DNA of 64,000 nucleotides from the NCBI RefSeq assembly GCF_024223415.1, contig NZ_CP100500.1. The stretch is one strand, 5' to 3'. The notes under the pieces are model-generated. The model worked only from the letters and a program-made list of their open reading frames with translations. It searched no databases and was not told where the DNA came from. This stretch comes from Escherichia coli (GTDB taxonomy: Bacteria > Pseudomonadota > Gammaproteobacteria > Enterobacterales > Enterobacteriaceae). A program made the position numbers and the translations under genes. Each line of letters begins with the position of its first letter. Position 1 is the stretch's first letter. Below are positions 11,649-24,636 of the stretch, one piece after another.

Positions 11649-12494
11649 ATGATGATCAATAAACAAAAATTAGTCAACCCTGAAAACCTGCCAGTTATTG
11701 CTGGTGTAGAAATTTCAACTGATATGGTTGGGCGCTTTAATCTGAATGCATTGCATCGAGCCAGCGGTCTTGGCCCCAATAAAGCTCCGACGCAGTGGTT
11801 GCGTACTCAGTCAGCTAAACAACTTATTGAAGAGCTGGAAAAAGAAACTATGCAGAATTGCATAGTTTCACTGGAAGGGCGGAATGGCGGTACTTTTGCG
11901 CACGAACTGCTTGCTGTTGAATATGCAGGATGGATTTCTCCTGCGTTCCGGTTGCAGGTGAACCAGACTTTTATTGACTATCGTACTGGCAAACTTACAG
12001 CGGGCAATAATCAGTTGCCCAATTTTGACGATCCGATCGCTGCTGCTGAAGCGTGGATTGAAGCCAAAAAATCCGAACGCCTTGCTCTCGGGTATGCAGA
12101 GCGTCAGGCTCGCTACATCAGCAAACTCGAAAGCCATCTCGCCGATGGCATCACTCCTGTGCAGTTCTGCAAACAGCTCAACGGTGTAAACACTCGTCAG
12201 ATTAATGCGTTCCTTGAAGAGCGTAACTGGCTGTATGACGACCGTCCGGAGGCTATGTATCCGCGCTGGCGTGTAAAAGCGTATGCACGTGACCAATACC
12301 TGACTGAGCGTTCTGGGCAGGTTGAGCAGGAAAACGGGGAAATGCGCGAGATTTTCAAACCACTCCTGAAGAAAAAAGGTGCCGCCTGGTTATATCGCCA
12401 TTATCTGAACGGCGAACTACCGATGAAGAAAACATGGGATGGGCTGTTTACCCATAACACTGAGCTCGCGAATCTTTTACAGGAGAGCAAATGA
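11649..12494 (+). CDS. KilA-N domain antirepressor-like protein
   Basis: 281 aa; N-terminal KilA-N-like and C-terminal antirepressor-like regions. Confidence 0.65.
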   Translation: MMINKQKLVNPENLPVIAGVEISTDMVGRFNLNALHRASGLGPNKAPTQWLRTQSAKQLIEELEKETMQNCIVSLEGRNGGTFAHELLAVEYAGWISPAFRLQVNQTFIDYRTGKLTAGNNQLPNFDDPIAAAEAWIEAKKSERLALGYAERQARYISKLESHLADGITPVQFCKQLNGVNTRQINAFLEERNWLYDDRPEAMYPRWRVKAYARDQYLTERSGQVEQENGEMREIFKPLLKKKGAAWLYRHYLNGELPMKKTWDGLFTHNTELANLLQESK

Positions 12495-12703: not shown

Positions 12704-13380
12704 CGGCGAGTAGGTACAAAATGATCCGCAACCAACATATTGATTCTGCAATTTCGGGACGTTACACTGTTCCAGCACCTTATAAAGCGGGTGCCGGGAT
12801 TGGAACCCCGGAATTGCATACGGCGATATACGACGCGCCAGCGTCTTTTTTATCGTCCGCGCTCACGCACGCCAGAATTATGGTGGGCTGGGCAGGGGAG
12901 CCGAAAGGCTCGCCGGTTTCCGTATGCGCCGGTAGTTCCAACCCTGTCCAGTTCACCACCAGTGAGATTGGAACCTCCGGTGGTGGAAGTTATCCATTGC
13001 ATACGGAGGCTGCCATCATGGCTACAGTCCCAACTTCCCCATACCTGAAAATCGAAGTCGTCAACGGCAAGGCCGTTATTTTCTCCCTGCATGTTGCCTG
13101 CCATTTCAAGCGCATGCACCAGAACATCGTCGACAAAATCGAGTATCTGAACTGCTCGCGCGAATTTTTTACCCGCAATTTCATACCGGGTACTTATCAC
13201 ATCTATGGTGACTCCCTGCGTGGTTATTACATCACCCTTGATGGTCTGATGATGCTTCAGCTTGGGTTAAGTCTACGCACAATGCGGTACTACGAGAGCT
13301 GCATTGAAGCATTCCAGGAGGCAGGGAACAGCCTGAATCTTACCGCTTTCCGCCGTAATCAGTGGGAGGCGCGTCCATGA
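12700..13380 (+). CDS. hypothetical protein (start uncertain; possibly internal Met at ~13018)
   Basis: ORF 12700..13380; the first ~100 codons are low-complexity and may be non-coding. Confidence 0.35.
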   Translation: MTASRYKMIRNQHIDSAISGRYTVPAPYKAGAGIGTPELHTAIYDAPASFLSSALTHARIMVGWAGEPKGSPVSVCAGSSNPVQFTTSEIGTSGGGSYPLHTEAAIMATVPTSPYLKIEVVNGKAVIFSLHVACHFKRMHQNIVDKIEYLNCSREFFTRNFIPGTYHIYGDSLRGYYITLDGLMMLQLGLSLRTMRYYESCIEAFQEAGNSLNLTAFRRNQWEARP

Positions 13381-18364: not shown

Positions 18365-18802
18365 TTGTGGAGAAAGTTGATGCGTGATATTCAAATGGTT
18401 CTTGAACGTTGGGGGGCATGGGTCGCAAATAATCATGAAGACGTGGAATGGTCAGGCATTGCCGCCGGATTTAAGGGGCTGATACCGTCAAAAGTAAAAT
18501 CGCGATCGCAGTGTTCCGATGATGACGCGATGATTATATGTGGTTGTATGGCTCGCCTGAAAAAGAACAACGCCGATATGCATGACATGCTGGTTGATTA
18601 CTACGTATATGGGATGACGTTCATGAAGTTAGCAATGAAACATGGATGTTCGGATACGCATATTGGAAAGCGTTTGCAAAAAGCTGAAGGAGTGGTTGAT
18701 GGTATGTTGATGATGCTAGATGTTCGCCTTGAGATGGATCGATATGTGAGCACAAATTATTCGATACGTCGTAAAACTGCGTCCTCCAGGGCAGGGATAT
18801 AA
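18365..18802 (+). CDS. late gene antiterminator Q
   Basis: 145 aa; resembles the Q family of E. coli cryptic prophages ([14 protein letters not shown]...). Confidence 0.75.
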
Positions 18803-18980: not shown

Positions 18981-20087
18981 TCAGAACTGATAAACCAGAC
19001 CAACAGCGACAATATCGTCGGTTGATACTCCTGTTCTTTCAGTGAATTTATTTTTATCGAGCATATTGATTTTGTAATCTATGTATGTAGACATATTTTT
19101 GTTGAAGTAATAAGAAGCCCCTACTTCAACGAATTTTTCAATATATCCGTCATCATGTTTTTTACTAATATCAGTACTGGATGAAAGGTTTTTTGCTTTA
19201 GAGTGGGTATAAGCAAGAGACGGGCGTAATCCAAAGTCGAACTGGTATTGTGCCACAACAGTGAAATCTTCGGTTTTATTCGCCACTCCTGAAATATTAT
19301 CACCATACGATATTGCACGGGTATTATTTGTTTCACCATAACTGGCAGCCAGGTACAGATTATTTGCGTCATATTTTACCCCGGTGGCCCACTGTTCAGC
19401 TTTTTTCCCTTTACCAAGCTCAGCCTTTTTCTGATTTTTAGTACGATCAGCAGCGCCGTATGCTGCGACAAAACCAAATCCTTCATATTCATAGCTGACA
19501 GAGCCACCTACACCCTCTCCGTTTGAAGTATCTGGTTTATCCTTGCGTTCATTTTTTCCCAGATACTGAATTGCAAAGCTAAGCCCATCGACCAGTCCAA
19601 AAAAGTCAGTGTTGCGGTATGTGGCAACACCGCCTACACGACCAACGAAGAAGTTATCCTTTTGCGCTGCGGTAGGTCCAAACTCCGGGAAGACGTCAGT
19701 GTAGCTTAATGCGTCGTACACCACGCCGTAGTTACGACCATAATCAAGAGAGCCAGCATCTGCAAGCTTCAGACCAGCGTATGCCAGGCGAGTCTTGTTT
19801 CCAGTTTGAGCTCCATCCCCTTCAGGGTTGTTCCCCTGGAAATTATATTCCCACTGACCAAAACCAGTAATATAATTATTTATTTGGGTTTCACCTCTGA
19901 ATCCAAGGCGTGCGTAAGTCTGATCTCCGTTTTGGTCCTTATCAGAAGAAAAATAATGTAAACCAACTGCTTTACCGTATAAATCCACTTTGTTTGCATC
20001 TTTATTGTATATTTATGCTGCATTTGAAGACGTTGCCAGAAATACTGATGCTGCTACAGCAGAAAGTGCCACTGTTAAATTTTTCAT
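18981..20087 (-). pseudogene. OmpC/OmpF/NmpC-family porin gene interrupted by an in-frame TAA at codon 25
   Basis: Hand translation from the ATG at ~20087 gives signal peptide MKNLTVALSAVAASVFLATSSNAA, then TAA (20013..20015) where porins have Glu of AEIYNKD, then [15 protein letters not shown]... continuing as ORF 18981..19988. Confidence 0.75.
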
Positions 20088-20685
20088 TTTTTATCCTCTG
20101 GTGGGAGTTAATTGGACGACAAAATGCTATCAGGATGAAAATTTAATTTCTGTGTATAATGTATACAAGGAAAATTAAGGAGTCCGATTCTTTATATGTG
20201 ATCACTATCACAAAATAAGAAGTCATGCAAACTAATAAATAGATGGCTATCTTTCACTCAGAAAATTAAGATCAATCTTTTTTATTAGAAGTGCTAAATA
20301 TATTTAATTATTTGGGTTTATGAGTTATTTATATAACCTTAATAAAGACATTACTTTTGAAGAAAAATACGTGCATAGAAGAATGCATAATCTTTAATTG
20401 TATCTTGCCAAACGTCGCAACAATCCAGAGATTGTCTGTGGGGTGAATCATGCAGCATGCAGGGTATGAACAAACACTTTACGATCGTAAAAGTATGCAT
20501 ATCATGGTAAGAGTGGTTCCTACGCCACACAACTTAAACCCGCAGCCAGGCGGTTTTTTACATCGAAAATCTGCACCGGACATTAAGCTCTTTGGCGGAC
20601 CAGATAAGAGGTGCGCTTAGTTGGGTTTGTCGGGCTTTCTCTGAGATTTGCGGTATTAATCCCGTAACGTTATTATGCTGCTCGA

Positions 20686-20761
20686 GGCCCTTTAGCTCAG
20701 TGGTGAGAGCGAGCGACTCATAATCGCAAGGGCGCTGGTTCAAATTCAGCAAGGGCCACCA
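20686..20761 (+). tRNA. tRNA with CAU anticodon (Met, or Ile2 if lysidine-modified)
   Basis: Hand-folded cloverleaf: acceptor GGCCCTT/AAGGGCC, D-arm TAGCTCAGTGGTGAGAGC, anticodon loop CTCATAA, T-loop TTCAAAT, 3' CCA; coordinates approximate. Confidence 0.75.
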
Positions 20762-20762
20762 A

Positions 20763-20839
20763 CCGCTACTAGCTCATCAGGAAAGAGCGTCAACCCTTTA
20801 AGTTGAGTGCGCTAGGTTCGATTCCCCGCTGGCGGTCCA
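20763..20839 (+). tRNA. tRNA-like sequence, degenerate (possible tRNA or tRNA pseudogene)
   Basis: D-arm (GCTC...GAGC) and T-loop (GGTTCGATTCC) are tRNA-like and 3' ends in CCA, but T-stem has mismatches and anticodon loop CCTTTAA lacks U33. Confidence 0.35.
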
Positions 20840-20841
20840 GC

Positions 20842-20914
20842 GCCGACTTACCTCAGTCGGCAGAACAGTTTAGTTGTAACCATCAGGCCACCACTTCAAT
20901 TCCGGTAGTCGGCA
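20842..20914 (+). tRNA. tRNA-like sequence, degenerate
   Basis: 7-bp acceptor pairing GCCGACT/AGTCGGC and TTCAATT T-loop, but weak D and anticodon stems; no encoded CCA. Confidence 0.3.
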
Positions 20915-21254
20915 CTAAATTTCCAGGCTCGTGCTCACGGCCTGCTTCATATCCGCGCCAGGTCCGTCGCGATTAAACCACAGGGCTTTTCAGGAGGGGC
21001 CACAGAGAGCGTCACACTGACCATTCCCTGTGGCTTGTGCTGAGATCCGGTCAGTGAAATTGTGCAAAGGGAATCTTCGGGAGCTTTGGGCAGAATGTCA
21101 GTTATTGATGTTGACATCCTCCACACCCTGAAGGTCGGGGTTTTACGGCGCACTGGATAAAATACCTGAACAAACAGCCTCTTCGTGCGGCTTTTTTATA
21201 ACGAGATTCTGACTTGCTGCCGTCCGTAATGTCGGATGGCGGAGGTGAGGGACT

Positions 21255-21527
21255 ATGAGAATGGACGAACGATACAGTAACGCTGCATACGGCAGCGCAG
21301 GACTTGTTGCGTTCTTTGCCAGCCTGTCACTGCAGGATTGGGGATTTATTATCGGCGTGGCGTTCAGTATCATTCTTGGCGTTCTTACTTATCGCCTTAA
21401 CAAACGGGAGCAGGAAAAACGAACCCGCATATTGCTCGAAATTCTGGAACGAACTAATGCCGGTAATGTTCCGGCTACGGCACATGCTGTGGCTGAGATT
21501 GCGAAAAAGGCACCAAAAGAAATATGA
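21255..21527 (+). CDS. class II holin (pinholin-like) with MRM dual-start motif
   Basis: 90 aa; two hydrophobic helices (LVAFFASLSL..., FIIGVAFSIILGVLTY), charged C-terminus; Met1-Arg-Met3 resembles holin/antiholin dual starts. Confidence 0.6.
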   Translation: MRMDERYSNAAYGSAGLVAFFASLSLQDWGFIIGVAFSIILGVLTYRLNKREQEKRTRILLEILERTNAGNVPATAHAVAEIAKKAPKEI

Positions 21528-21683
21528 CGAATATCCCGGGAGTGAGGGGATAATATACCTTTTAACAAAATCCGGGAACATGAAACGCCCGGAACGTTTC
21601 ATGAGGCATGCCCCGTGGGGAGCAGGGCATAACTGTGCGGAATAGCTTTCATTGTGATATCAATAATCACGGTATTCAAAATA

Positions 21684-22061
21684 TTACGGGCCTGTGGGAT
21701 CAGGTTGTTTTTTGTCTGATTCCAGAGGGAAGGGACGCTGTTTCGGTTCTCTGAACTTTAGTGATAATGAATTGAAAATCCTCATTTTTTGCTGCCATGC
21801 ATAATGTCTGTCCCATGAACAGGGGGGGCTCAATTCTTCATTCACCCATGCGTTAATATCTTGTTTCAGGTGTTGAAGCATACGGGGTGTTAATGCACTC
21901 ATAATAATATCCAGCGTTTTATGCGAGAGTTTACCGTAAGGGTCTGCAAGGATGCTGCTCGTTGCTTCGTTATTATCCACCATAAGTGGAAGTAGCGCTG
22001 ATTTAACTTTTTCTGTCATTAGTTGCAAAAATCTACTGCGCAAATTTTCTTTACTGTTCAT
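21684..22061 (-). CDS. hypothetical protein between holin and endolysin (opposite strand)
   Basis: 125 aa ORF, no recognisable domain. Confidence 0.4.
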   Translation of the reverse strand: MNSKENLRSRFLQLMTEKVKSALLPLMVDNNEATSSILADPYGKLSHKTLDIIMSALTPRMLQHLKQDINAWVNEELSPPCSWDRHYAWQQKMRIFNSLSLKFREPKQRPFPLESDKKQPDPTGP

Positions 22062-22184
22062 TTCTGAAGCCTCATCTGTTGTCGTTTGGTTTTCCTGAAC
22101 GGGTATGTTTATGAGACATGCTGGTACTGGATTATATACCTGATATATCCAGGGTTATAAACCTTTAGATCCTGATAAATATAC

Positions 22185-22718
22185 ATGAACGCAAAAATCA
22201 GATACGGCCTGTCGGCTGCCGTTCTGGCGCTGATTGGTGCTGGCGCATCTGCTCCTCAGATACTTGATCAGTTTCTGGACGAAAAAGAGGGTAACCACAC
22301 AACGGCATACCGCGATGGGTCCGGCATCTGGACCATCTGTCGGGGTGCCACGATGGTGGATGGAAAACCCGTTTTTCCCGGAATGAAGCTGTCGAAGGAA
22401 AAATGCGACCAGGTTAACGCTATTGAACGTGATAAGGCACTGGCATGGGTGGAGCGCAATATTAAAGTACCTCTGACCGAACCACAGAAAGCGGGTATTG
22501 CGTCATTCTGTCCCTATAACATTGGCCCCGGTAAGTGTTTCCCGTCGACGTTTTATAAGCGGCTTAATGCCGGTGATCGAAAAGGCGCCTGCGAGGCGAT
22601 TCGCTGGTGGATAAAGGATGGTGGGCGCGATTGCCGCATACGTTCAAATAACTGCTATGGACAGGTTATTCGTCGTGACCAGGAAAGCGCATTAGCCTGT
22701 TGGGGGATAGATCAGTGA
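22185..22718 (+). CDS. SAR endolysin (T4-lysozyme-like, GH24)
   Basis: 177 aa; N-terminal signal-anchor-release helix ([15 protein letters not shown]), catalytic E..D..T triad context ([20 protein letters not shown]). Confidence 0.85.
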
Positions 22719-23182
22719 GCAGAGTCGCCGCGATTATTTATGCTCTGGTTATCTGCATCATCGTCTGCCTGTCGTGGGCGGTCAATCATTACCGTGATAA
22801 CGCCATCGCCTACAAAGAACAGCGAGATAAAAAAGTCAGTGAGCTGAAGCAGGCGACCGCCACCATTACTGACATGCAGCAACGCCAGCGTGCTGCTGAT
22901 GTACTCGATGCTAAATACACGAAGGAGTTAGCTGATGCGAAAGCTAAAAATGATGCTCTTCGGCGCAAGCTTGATAATGGTGGCAGGGTGCTCGTCAAAG
23001 GAAAATGCCCTGTGCCATCCTCAGCCGAAACCTCCAGCGCCTCCGGCATGGGCAATGATGCCACCGTCGAACTCTCTCCAGTTGCTGGACGAAACGTTCT
23101 CGGTGTCCGGGACGGAATTATCCGCGACCAAACAGCACTGAGAACGCTTCAGGAATACATCAGGACGCAATGCCTTCGATGA
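22700..23182 (+). CDS. i-spanin Rz
   Basis: 160 aa; N-terminal TM helix, coiled-coil periplasmic domain, overlaps endolysin 3' end. Confidence 0.75.
22935..23141 (+). CDS. o-spanin Rz1 (lipoprotein embedded in Rz in another frame)
   Basis: 68 aa; lipobox LIMVAGCSS, Pro-rich mature part; fully embedded in Rz. Confidence 0.7.
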
Positions 23183-23400
23183 TAGCGATAATTTTACTCA
23201 TCATCCTTCACATCTGGCTCTGTAGACAGGGTGGTGATCACTTCTGGAGTGAATCCAGATTAAACATCTCATTGCTGATTCTTGATATTGAGCATCTGGC
23301 GCGCGGTAAGGGGCTGCGTTGAGATAAGAGCCAGTCATCACAAACACCAGGATTTAGCCTCGCATTCGCGGGGCTTTTTATTGCAACAAAGGTAAAGACG

Positions 23401-23688
23401 ATGGATGAAGAATATCGTAAAAACCTGCAACTGTGGTTTGGTCTTACGCATGCGTCGTTCTGCGTGATGCCGCGAGTATTCATGGAGGCTATGCCACCAG
23501 AATGGCAAGAGAAGATGGCTCAGTTGCTTTTTGAGTATAGCGACACAATCAAAACGGATGTCTGCGGAGTTCACAGCTGTTTTGTTACTGCCAAAGACGG
23601 CAACAACCGCTTTATGAGGATGCCAGAAGATATTCTGAACTATCGTCATCCCCGACGTGAATTCATCGAATCATTTCTGAAGAAGTAG
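23401..23688 (+). CDS. hypothetical protein
   Basis: 95 aa ORF downstream of lysis cassette. Confidence 0.4.
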   Translation: MDEEYRKNLQLWFGLTHASFCVMPRVFMEAMPPEWQEKMAQLLFEYSDTIKTDVCGVHSCFVTAKDGNNRFMRMPEDILNYRHPRREFIESFLKK

Positions 23689-24309
23689 CCATTACAAAGC
23701 CTATCTACGGGTGGGCTTGATAATGAAACCAGAATTTATTCTGGGAAACCAGTTACGGCAGTACAGCGAAACAACCCAAGCCAGTAAGTGGGGAAATAAC
23801 ACTGGCAGCCACTGAAAGATGAACCTCCTGCCTTATGGCAAAAAAGATTCTTTGTGGTGGCGGACTGATGGAAAGACATCGGTTATTGCAGAGACCATTC
23901 AATGAGTGGTCTCGACAATGGCTTATACCCTACACGGGATAACTTAACTGATATCCCTTTTAACGGATAAAGGTATTCAAGCCTGACATATCATGCGCTG
24001 TATCGTCGCCGTATTCCCGTATTAACAGAGACCGTAGCCCGACGGGGAACTCCTTCTGCGCGAGTGTGCGGGAATAATCAAAAACGATGCACACCGGGTT
24101 TTTACCGCGTTTATGGTTCGCGGGTTTGTCCCTCATGCTCGCCAGTCCGGTGCGATGGTGGAAGAAACCGGAAGCTGTATTACAGAAAGTGCTACTACTG
24201 TATCCTGATGCGATGTATGTAATGTGAGTCAGATAATGGCACAGGATGTGGTGATGTGGCAGTCTGGAACACAGGATATATTGTCAGAATAAGACCCGTA
24301 GGAATAAAA

Positions 24310-24636
24310 ATGAAAAGACGCCTTTCACTACTTTTTCTGTTATCTGCCCTGGCAGTGGGATGCTCGCAGCAAAAAGCTGATGAGCCCCGGCAATTAGTGA
24401 CGGTGTATCCACGATATCCGGAATATGCTGCAGCAAATTATATCAAGGGGCTGGTTGAGGTTAAGTTCGATATTGGTGCTGACGGGACTGTGACACGGAT
24501 CGTTTTTCTCCGCTCAGAGCCTCATAATTTGTTTCGTGATGAAGTGGTGAAGGCCATGGCGAAATGGAGATTTGAAAAGAATAGTCCCCGTCAGGGAGTG
24601 AAGAGACAATTTATCTTTACGCCATCACGTCCCTGA
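24310..24636 (+). CDS. TonB C-terminal-domain-like lipoprotein
   Basis: Internal Met of ORF 24256..24636 gives MKRRLSLLFLLSALAVGCSQQK (lipobox), followed by a TonB-C-like region (YPRYPEYAAANYIKGLVEVKFDIGADGTV). Confidence 0.55.
   Translation: MKRRLSLLFLLSALAVGCSQQKADEPRQLVTVYPRYPEYAAANYIKGLVEVKFDIGADGTVTRIVFLRSEPHNLFRDEVVKAMAKWRFEKNSPRQGVKRQFIFTPSRP

Follow-up and report, generated by a model that had tools for sequence, protein, structure and literature searches.

Among the closest described counterparts of the locus considered here is the pinholin/SAR (signal-arrest-release) cassette of phage 21, a lysis paradigm established by the Young laboratory through studies of S21 and R21, in which the holin gene S and the endolysin gene R are contiguous. 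In Qin-type cassettes the slot between these two genes holds an accessory gene, which in Escherichia coli K-12 is ydfR (DUF1327), encoded on the late strand; the label 'YdfR family protein' of the Prokaryotic Genome Annotation Pipeline (PGAP) is seen in this slot. Accessory genes of opposite orientation within late operons are represented by lambda bor and by the porin genes nmpC and lc, for which promoter, expression in the lysogen and function are known. Here we describe a lysis gene set (21255–23182) in a stretch of 64,000 nucleotides of E. coli DNA (assembly GCF_024223415.1, contig NZ_CP100500.1), which as a whole is referred to as the window. The set consists of four plus-strand genes and one open reading frame (ORF) of 125 aa on the minus strand, and we favour, with a probability of roughly 70%, the view that it is a lysis cassette in a lambdoid E. 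coli prophage of mosaic structure, the antisense ORF being a moron-like accessory gene.

An earlier note on this DNA, made from its letters alone, had named a dual-start holin, the antisense ORF, a SAR endolysin and an embedded Rz1, and these lie, together with Rz as the fifth element, within the coordinates it had given. It had also conceded that the ORF would have to be regarded as spurious if it showed no conservation in related cassettes. Conservation is evident. The ORF (21684–22061, minus strand) belongs to PHROG 1853 (phrog_1853, E-value 4.8e-41), a family labelled 'unknown function' in the database; its residues 1–102 match profile positions 57–158 of 159, and the homologue from a Shiga toxin (Stx) phage matches the same profile at 1.3e-42. 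The canonical part of the gene comprises 104 codons (21750–22061) and is preceded by a GAGG ribosome-binding site 8 nt before the ATG. There are 15 close homologues; homologues are mostly 104–106 aa long and share a common start and end, with the frame being kept down to 46% identity. Pairwise Nei-Gojobori comparisons with five homologues at 46–80% amino acid identity gave dN/dS values of 0.11–0.37. The frame is thus under purifying selection, and a spurious ORF can be excluded from the low dN/dS values together with the kept reading frame. Conservation caused by a gene on the plus strand was also considered and rejected, as the plus strand holds nothing but short ORFs of 36–48 aa at this position.

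The same note had called it unusual to find a gene of the opposite strand between holin and endolysin, which is not borne out. Of 5426 complete E. coli genomes, 673 (12%, about one in eight) carry a homologue of the ORF. A scan of IMG/VR returned 80 loci, and according to a tblastn panel every locus has the ORF in antisense orientation and adjoining lysis genes; it is flanked by a holin and an RrrQ-type lysozyme in 77 of them, the others showing one of the two, and it is 104 aa long in 67. The same slot is used in prophage CP-933O and in Stx2 phages. Stx2-converting phage 86 and Stx2a phage 12E129 share the order holin, a gene of family PHROG 1085, antisense ORF, lysozyme, in some cases ant, and Rz, the ORF being named orf6 in phage 86. 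O157:H7 and an E. coli isolate from a rodent have a class II holin, followed by the antisense ORF and the lysozyme. Two homologues of distant, metagenomic origin (P0022, P0032) are likewise antisense and lie just upstream of a lambda-S-type or HP1-type holin gene, tail-to-tail with a PHROG 1085-like gene. PHROG 1853, often accompanied by PHROG 1085, is a small, E. coli-centred family found strictly in antisense orientation in lysis cassettes, Stx phages included. In E. coli O157:H7 strain 9234 (locus L005, 4071–5590) the class II holin gene of a CP-933O-type cassette is split by an insertion of the IS3 family, the antisense ORF and the lysozyme gene being intact. What is rare in the window is the union of a holin of family phrog_1350 with the module of ORF, endolysin and Rz, and the position of the junction on the stop codon of the ORF: the complete arrangement was found in 19 of the 5426 E. 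coli genomes, and this holin type accompanies the ORF in only one of the 80 IMG/VR loci.

The junction can be placed precisely. DNA homology to three related cassettes (L005, L006, L007) stops at about 21750, which is the canonical stop codon of the ORF, and where the relatives have TAG the window has GAA. The ORF therefore reads 21 codons (21687–21749) into unrelated sequence. Between the stop codon of the holin gene and the canonical end of the ORF lies a lineage-specific spacer (21528–21749) with no homology to the spacers of other cassettes. Recombination has thus joined the phrog_1350 holin gene to the module of ORF, endolysin and Rz, and its junction, by falling on the stop codon of the ORF, produced the 21-residue tail, a clean case of mosaic recombination landing on a stop codon. 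Gene remnants were sought by tblastn and none was found, neither of the PHROG 1085 partner in 21000–22300 nor of an R21-type lysozyme in 21500–21800.

The altered 3' end raises the question of whether the 125-aa ORF is a non-functional remnant, as PGAP decided for near-identical copies in two relatives (L001, L002), which it annotates as partial pseudogenes ('incomplete, missing C-terminus'). Besides this flag, which also weighs against our own interpretation, the loss of the canonical stop codon, the gain of 21 unrelated codons, the absence of the partner gene and the existence of frameshift variants would fit such a remnant. The latter concern a G7 run on the plus strand (21822–21828), corresponding to C7 in the sense of the ORF, where it encodes Ser-Pro-Pro; the database variants P0004 and P0005 are frameshifted exactly at this tract and diverge after ...ELSPP. 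However, the 104 canonical codons, the start codon and the ribosome-binding site are all intact, the 125-aa frame is intact in L001 and L002 despite the PGAP call, and several independent genomes share the 125-aa form with little or no change. For the added tail, disorder is predicted, with low confidence in an AlphaFold2 (AF2) model; it would leave the fold undisturbed, and purifying selection acts on the family overall. We consider a pseudogene very unlikely, and an ORF that had been called a pseudogene is in fact a selected coding gene.

The family is narrow, as only 20 clusters, mostly fragments, were returned when its profile was run exhaustively against 1.84 billion representative proteins. 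Neither Pfam nor NCBIfam nor PADLOC gave a match for the ORF protein. The AF2 model has five helices within residues 3–103 (pLDDT, the predicted local distance difference test score, 81 overall; about 57 in the tail), and a fold comparison of this model yielded no informative structural neighbour. The protein has neither a signal peptide nor a membrane segment and is therefore not a surface or envelope factor; from the model it is best read as soluble and cytoplasmic, with five helices and a mass of about 12 kDa. Annotation of the O157:H7 copy goes back to the EDL933 genome, where it appears as 'unknown protein encoded within prophage CP-933O'. A literature search retrieved no paper on DUF1327 together with a holin and none on the accession of the O157 protein, and two papers on Stx-phage genomics describe the pinholin/SAR cassette without mentioning the antisense gene (PMC8136144, PMC10462455).

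The best-supported reading of the ORF is that of a moron-like, separately transcribed accessory gene. Its base composition is deviant, with 35–44% GC over the ORF and its upstream region vs 50–56% in holin and endolysin genes, and it is polymorphic for presence and absence between conserved neighbours: in phages PhiR46_1, UPF_BP1 and PSTCR3, cassettes with the same holin type lack the ORF and the holin gene directly abuts the gene for an R21-like SAR lysozyme. This combination of base composition and polymorphism is typical of a moron. The ORF is also oriented against the late operon, as are lambda bor and, in the same operon of the window, a porin gene (18981–19988). A candidate -10 hexamer (TATAAT, 22131–22136, minus strand), recognised from the sequence about 70 nt upstream of the ATG, is kept in four sublineages, and on the minus strand of the spacer two hairpins (21607–21631 and 21579–21603) could, as candidates, terminate the transcript of the ORF. 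We envisage that the ORF forms its own transcription unit, which would run away from the endolysin gene and against the late operon, and that it would be expressed while the late genes are silent. Among E. coli prophages, the PHROG 1853 gene travels with the RrrQ-type endolysin module.

Several observations weigh against this reading. The Stx-phage sublineage has other sequence in place of the hexamer, the candidate promoter lacks a convincing -35 element, and a consensus promoter scan returned no promoter for the ORF. The spacer hairpins, with a z-score of -1.56, are statistically not unusual. Finally, the copy in the window has neither its canonical stop codon nor the convergent phrog_1085 partner, and could be a decaying orphan. 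The sequence that replaces the hexamer in the Stx-phage sublineage (L074, L091, L088-L092) is a strong hairpin followed by a T-run, CGCCAGTG-GTGGG-CACTGGCG-TTTTAT, situated about 60–90 nt upstream of the start of the ORF and in its sense, and it resembles a terminator placed just before a gene.

The missing partner deserves consideration, as the ORF might be half of a two-gene module whose ancestral other half would be a convergent PHROG 1085 gene of the late strand, overlapping it at the 3' end. The protein or the antisense transcript of the ORF would counteract or regulate this partner, perhaps in the manner of an inhibitor or an antitoxin that guards against leaky late expression; the copy in the window would then be orphaned. 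Conservation among PHROG 1085 proteins lies in a C-terminal domain of about 125 aa (RIGRCM..LQ.AAEIE...PPFK..W..PG..YLKG), which follows variable N-termini; the member in Stx2 phage 86 is DUF1327/YdfR. The 3' ends of these genes (L003, 4292–5098; L004, 4327–4968; L008, 1710–2264; L011, 793–963) either overlap the 3' end of the antisense PHROG 1853 gene or are no more than about 10 bp away from it. Stx2 phage 86, 12E129 and L006 have the tail-to-tail pair, as do 29 of the 80 IMG/VR loci. In distant metagenomic loci (L008-L011) the pair is likewise kept, although its position relative to the holin gene differs, and the partnerless, O157-type loci L005 and L007 retain a degenerate trace of the partner (tblastn, E-values 0.002–0.003). 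On the other hand, the partner is absent from 51 of the 80 loci, one of which ends right after the ORF, and the ORF is intact there, as it is in the window and in the O157 copies. A comparison between two partnerless copies still gives a dN/dS of 0.15–0.22. When the ORF protein was fused by a linker to the PHROG 1085 C-terminal domain, AF2 gave no confident joint fold (predicted template modelling score 0.44, partner pLDDT mostly below 70), and PADLOC had no match for the partner either. A functional two-gene module is, in our view, unlikely, and we retain the moron-like accessory gene as the preferred interpretation.

The consistent location of the ORF suggests a further alternative, a dedicated regulator of lysis, where the protein would act in the lysogen to restrain either holin or SAR endolysin, or where antisense transcription would block leaky read-through from holin to endolysin. 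In both cases the gene would safeguard the cell against a SAR endolysin whose leakage is dangerous. All homologues that were found are antisense inside or adjoining a lysis cassette, across two endolysin types and three holin families (phrog_1350, P21-S class II, and Phage_holin_3_1 / 2_3), and the start of the ORF is divergent from that of the endolysin gene at a distance of 123 bp. But the ORF is missing from most of the 5314 E. coli genomes with a match to the cassette, as do the phage cassettes with a phrog_1350 holin, and the pinholin/SAR cassette of phage 21 works without such a gene. The protein lacks a membrane segment and does not resemble known antiholins, and the location of the gene may simply reflect a permissive insertion slot, the one that carries ydfR in Qin-type cassettes. 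A dedicated lysis regulator in this strict sense seems to us improbable. Only slightly less doubtful is a broader version, in which PHROG 1853 would be an unrecognised regulator specific to lysis cassettes, either a factor expressed in the lysogen or an antisense unit, that curbs a leaky SAR endolysin, holin or PHROG 1085 protein until it is overridden by Q-driven transcription. If true, some pinholin/SAR cassettes, including those of Stx phages, would have a fifth functional component. In Stx phages the timing of lysis governs toxin release.

The plus-strand genes of the cassette are in line with the phage 21 strategy that the earlier note had proposed, with one reservation that concerns the holin family. 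The holin gene (21255–21527, plus strand; 90 aa; phrog_1350 'holin', 3.1e-29) has a dual start, M1-R2-M3, with ATG codons at 21255 and 21261, and two overlapping Shine-Dalgarno motifs (GGAGG, 21241–21245, and GAGGG, 21247–21251) each lie 9 nt from one of them. An M-[K/R]-M start is invariant across four family members in an alignment with the phage homologues. The first predicted transmembrane domain (TMD1, aa 10–26, nt 21282–21332) is SAR-like according to a hand calculation, with a Kyte-Doolittle (KD) hydropathy of about 1.5 and 59% Gly/Ala/Ser. The second (TMD2, aa 29–48, nt 21339–21398; KD 1.93 over aa 30–48) carries the motif G34xxxS38xxxG42, and the C-terminal tail is basic. Taken together, these features predict an N-in/C-in protein with a SAR-like TMD1 and a GxxxSxxxG motif in TMD2. 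When compared by BLASTP with S21, the holin shows 38% identity over 53 aa (E-value 3e-5) with M3 opposite M4 of S21, and M1, M3, G34, S38 and G42 are invariant in an alignment of the holin with three phage homologues, S21 and a class II holin from a prophage.

Against a phage 21-type holin stand the Pfam scores, which are below the gathering cut-offs both for PF04971, the P21 holin S family (19.6 vs 26 bits), and for PF16080, the HP1 holin family (22.4 vs 28.8 bits). From its sequence, the holin is best described as a distant relative of S21 and not as a formal member of PF04971. The designation as pinholin is thus suggested by distant homology and by the SAR partner. The proposal of the earlier note therefore holds at the sequence level for the dual-start class II holin, the SAR endolysin and the embedded Rz1, with pinholin as a putative designation.

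The endolysin (22185–22718, plus strand; 177 aa) is a GH24 lysozyme of the RrrQ/R21 type (PF00959, 1.4e-24, 87.3 bits at a cut-off of 22.3; phrog_7, 7.4e-64). Its catalytic triad E35-D44-T50, with the spacing E-8aa-D-5aa-T, is invariant in an alignment with R21-like lysozymes. R21 (3HDE, a solved structure of the complete phage 21 lysozyme) and RrrD (4ZPU) can be aligned with the protein from end to end, including the N-terminus. The endolysin is 90–93% identical to the lysozymes of L007 and of Stx2 phage 86. The predicted SAR domain (about aa 7–27, nt 22203–22265; residues 9–27 with a KD of 1.67 and 53% Gly/Ala/Ser/Thr) is free of Cys, and the regulation is therefore expected to be of the R21 type rather than of the disulfide type of P1 Lyz. 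These features support an R21-type SAR endolysin for which release from the membrane is predicted, and the same SAR-type prediction has been made for RrrQ-type endolysins in Stx-phage genomics (PMC8136144, PMC10462455).

Rz, the i-spanin (22715–23182, plus strand; 155 aa; PF03245, 5e-28, 98.3 bits; phrog_13, 1.7e-71), starts with a GTG at 22715 that overlaps the stop codon of the endolysin gene (GTGA), a start also selected by PGAP in L001 and L002; TTG 22700 was considered as a start and set aside in its favour. An N-terminal TMD is predicted from hydropathy at aa 4–23 (KD 2.73). The o-spanin lipoprotein Rz1 (22935–23141, plus strand; 68 aa; PF06085, 3.8e-21, 75 bits; phrog_3198, 7.5e-26) is encoded wholly within Rz, at an offset of 220 nt and thus in the +1 frame. 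It has the lipobox V-A-G-C19 and a Pro-rich mature part, and AAGGAG is located 7 nt upstream of its ATG. Rz and Rz1 thus have the characteristics of a two-component, embedded spanin.

By analogy, lysis may proceed as follows. Q-dependent late transcription would read through the whole cassette region, and the M-R-M start would yield two holin products, the longer one, with an additional positive charge, acting as antiholin and the shorter one as holin. The endolysin would be exported by Sec and tethered in an inactive state through its N-terminal SAR domain. Triggering of the holin, presumably by forming pinholes, would depolarise the membrane, upon which the SAR domain may leave the bilayer and the enzyme refold to its active form. 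Rz and Rz1 would then disrupt the outer membrane.

The cassette lies downstream of the Q antiterminator gene (18365–18802). Between this gene and a pair of tRNA genes followed by the holin gene is a full-length gene for an OmpC/NmpC-like porin (18981–19988, minus strand; PF00267, 4.8e-123), with a region of 24–33% GC upstream of it (20000–20400). This is a second antisense moron of the same late operon, like nmpC in DLP12. The two tRNA genes are phage-borne and just upstream of the holin gene. The first (20686–20761, plus strand) has the anticodon CAT and is assigned to Met by ARAGORN, PGAP assigning its equivalent in relatives to Ile; it is probably tRNA-Ile2. The second (20763–20839, plus strand) is for tRNA-Lys (TTT), and the relative L002 has a tRNA-Arg in its place. 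An Rfam scan of 20000–24000 detected the two tRNAs and no other RNA family.

Downstream of Rz, an ORF of 95 aa (23401–23688, plus strand) matches only the C-terminal part of PHROG 3527 (139–230 of 233) and looks like a truncated gene. A 126-aa protein (24256–24636, plus strand) has a TonB C-terminal domain (PF03544, 3.8e-13) and belongs to PHROG 1267, whose label 'Rz-like spanin' looks like a library mislabel. The pair of isrK small RNA and C4 antisense RNA (Rfam RF01394 and RF01695, all above the gathering score) is present in two inverted copies about 38.5 kb apart (12775–12963, plus strand; 51426–51614, minus strand), and one of these adjoins a KilA-N/ANT antirepressor gene (11649–12494). 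To the right of the prophage is the host trp operon (ORFs of trpEDCBA size, 53718–60363, minus strand; Trp_leader RF00513 at 60270–60363), so that the prophage is located near trp in an E. coli-like chromosome.

Among the known systems, phage 21 shares with the window a class II dual-start holin with two TMDs, a Gly/Ala/Ser-rich TMD1 and GxxxSxxxG in TMD2, a GH24 endolysin with a Cys-free SAR domain and the triad E35-D44-T50, and an Rz1 gene in the +1 frame of Rz. It differs in that the window holin, at 90 aa, has a charged C-terminal tail of 40 residues and remains below the PF04971 cut-off, and in that S and R are 657 bp apart in the window with the antisense gene between them. The window endolysin is 33–37% identical to the R21-like lysozymes that follow phrog_1350 holins in other phages and has a Cys-rich C-terminal insertion.

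A second group of counterparts comprises lambda bor and the porin genes of the nmpC/lc kind (DLP12, PA-2), which are accessory genes of opposite orientation in a Q-dependent late operon, lower in GC and variably present; a porin moron of this kind is found 1.3 kb upstream of the cassette in the window. In contrast to these genes, the ORF is known from its sequence and its promoter is a candidate. The overall significance is modest, as the cassette is an ordinary lambdoid one of the pinholin/SAR type to which a gene already catalogued as hypothetical is added at a recurrent position.

The Qin prophage of E. coli K-12 (essQ, ydfR, rrrQ, rzpQ) has the same endolysin type, close relatives of the window protein being named rrrQ by PGAP, and like the window it houses an accessory gene between S and R, although the gene in the window is unrelated and on the opposite strand. 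Stx2 phage 86 and CP-933O differ by a holin of 71 aa and P21-S type and by an ORF of 104 aa with its own stop codon, and phage 86 in addition by a convergent phrog_1085/DUF1327 gene and by ant between R and Rz, both missing in the window. They share with the window an antisense PHROG 1853 gene immediately upstream of, and divergent from, an RrrQ-type endolysin gene, the endolysins being 90–93% identical to that of the window.

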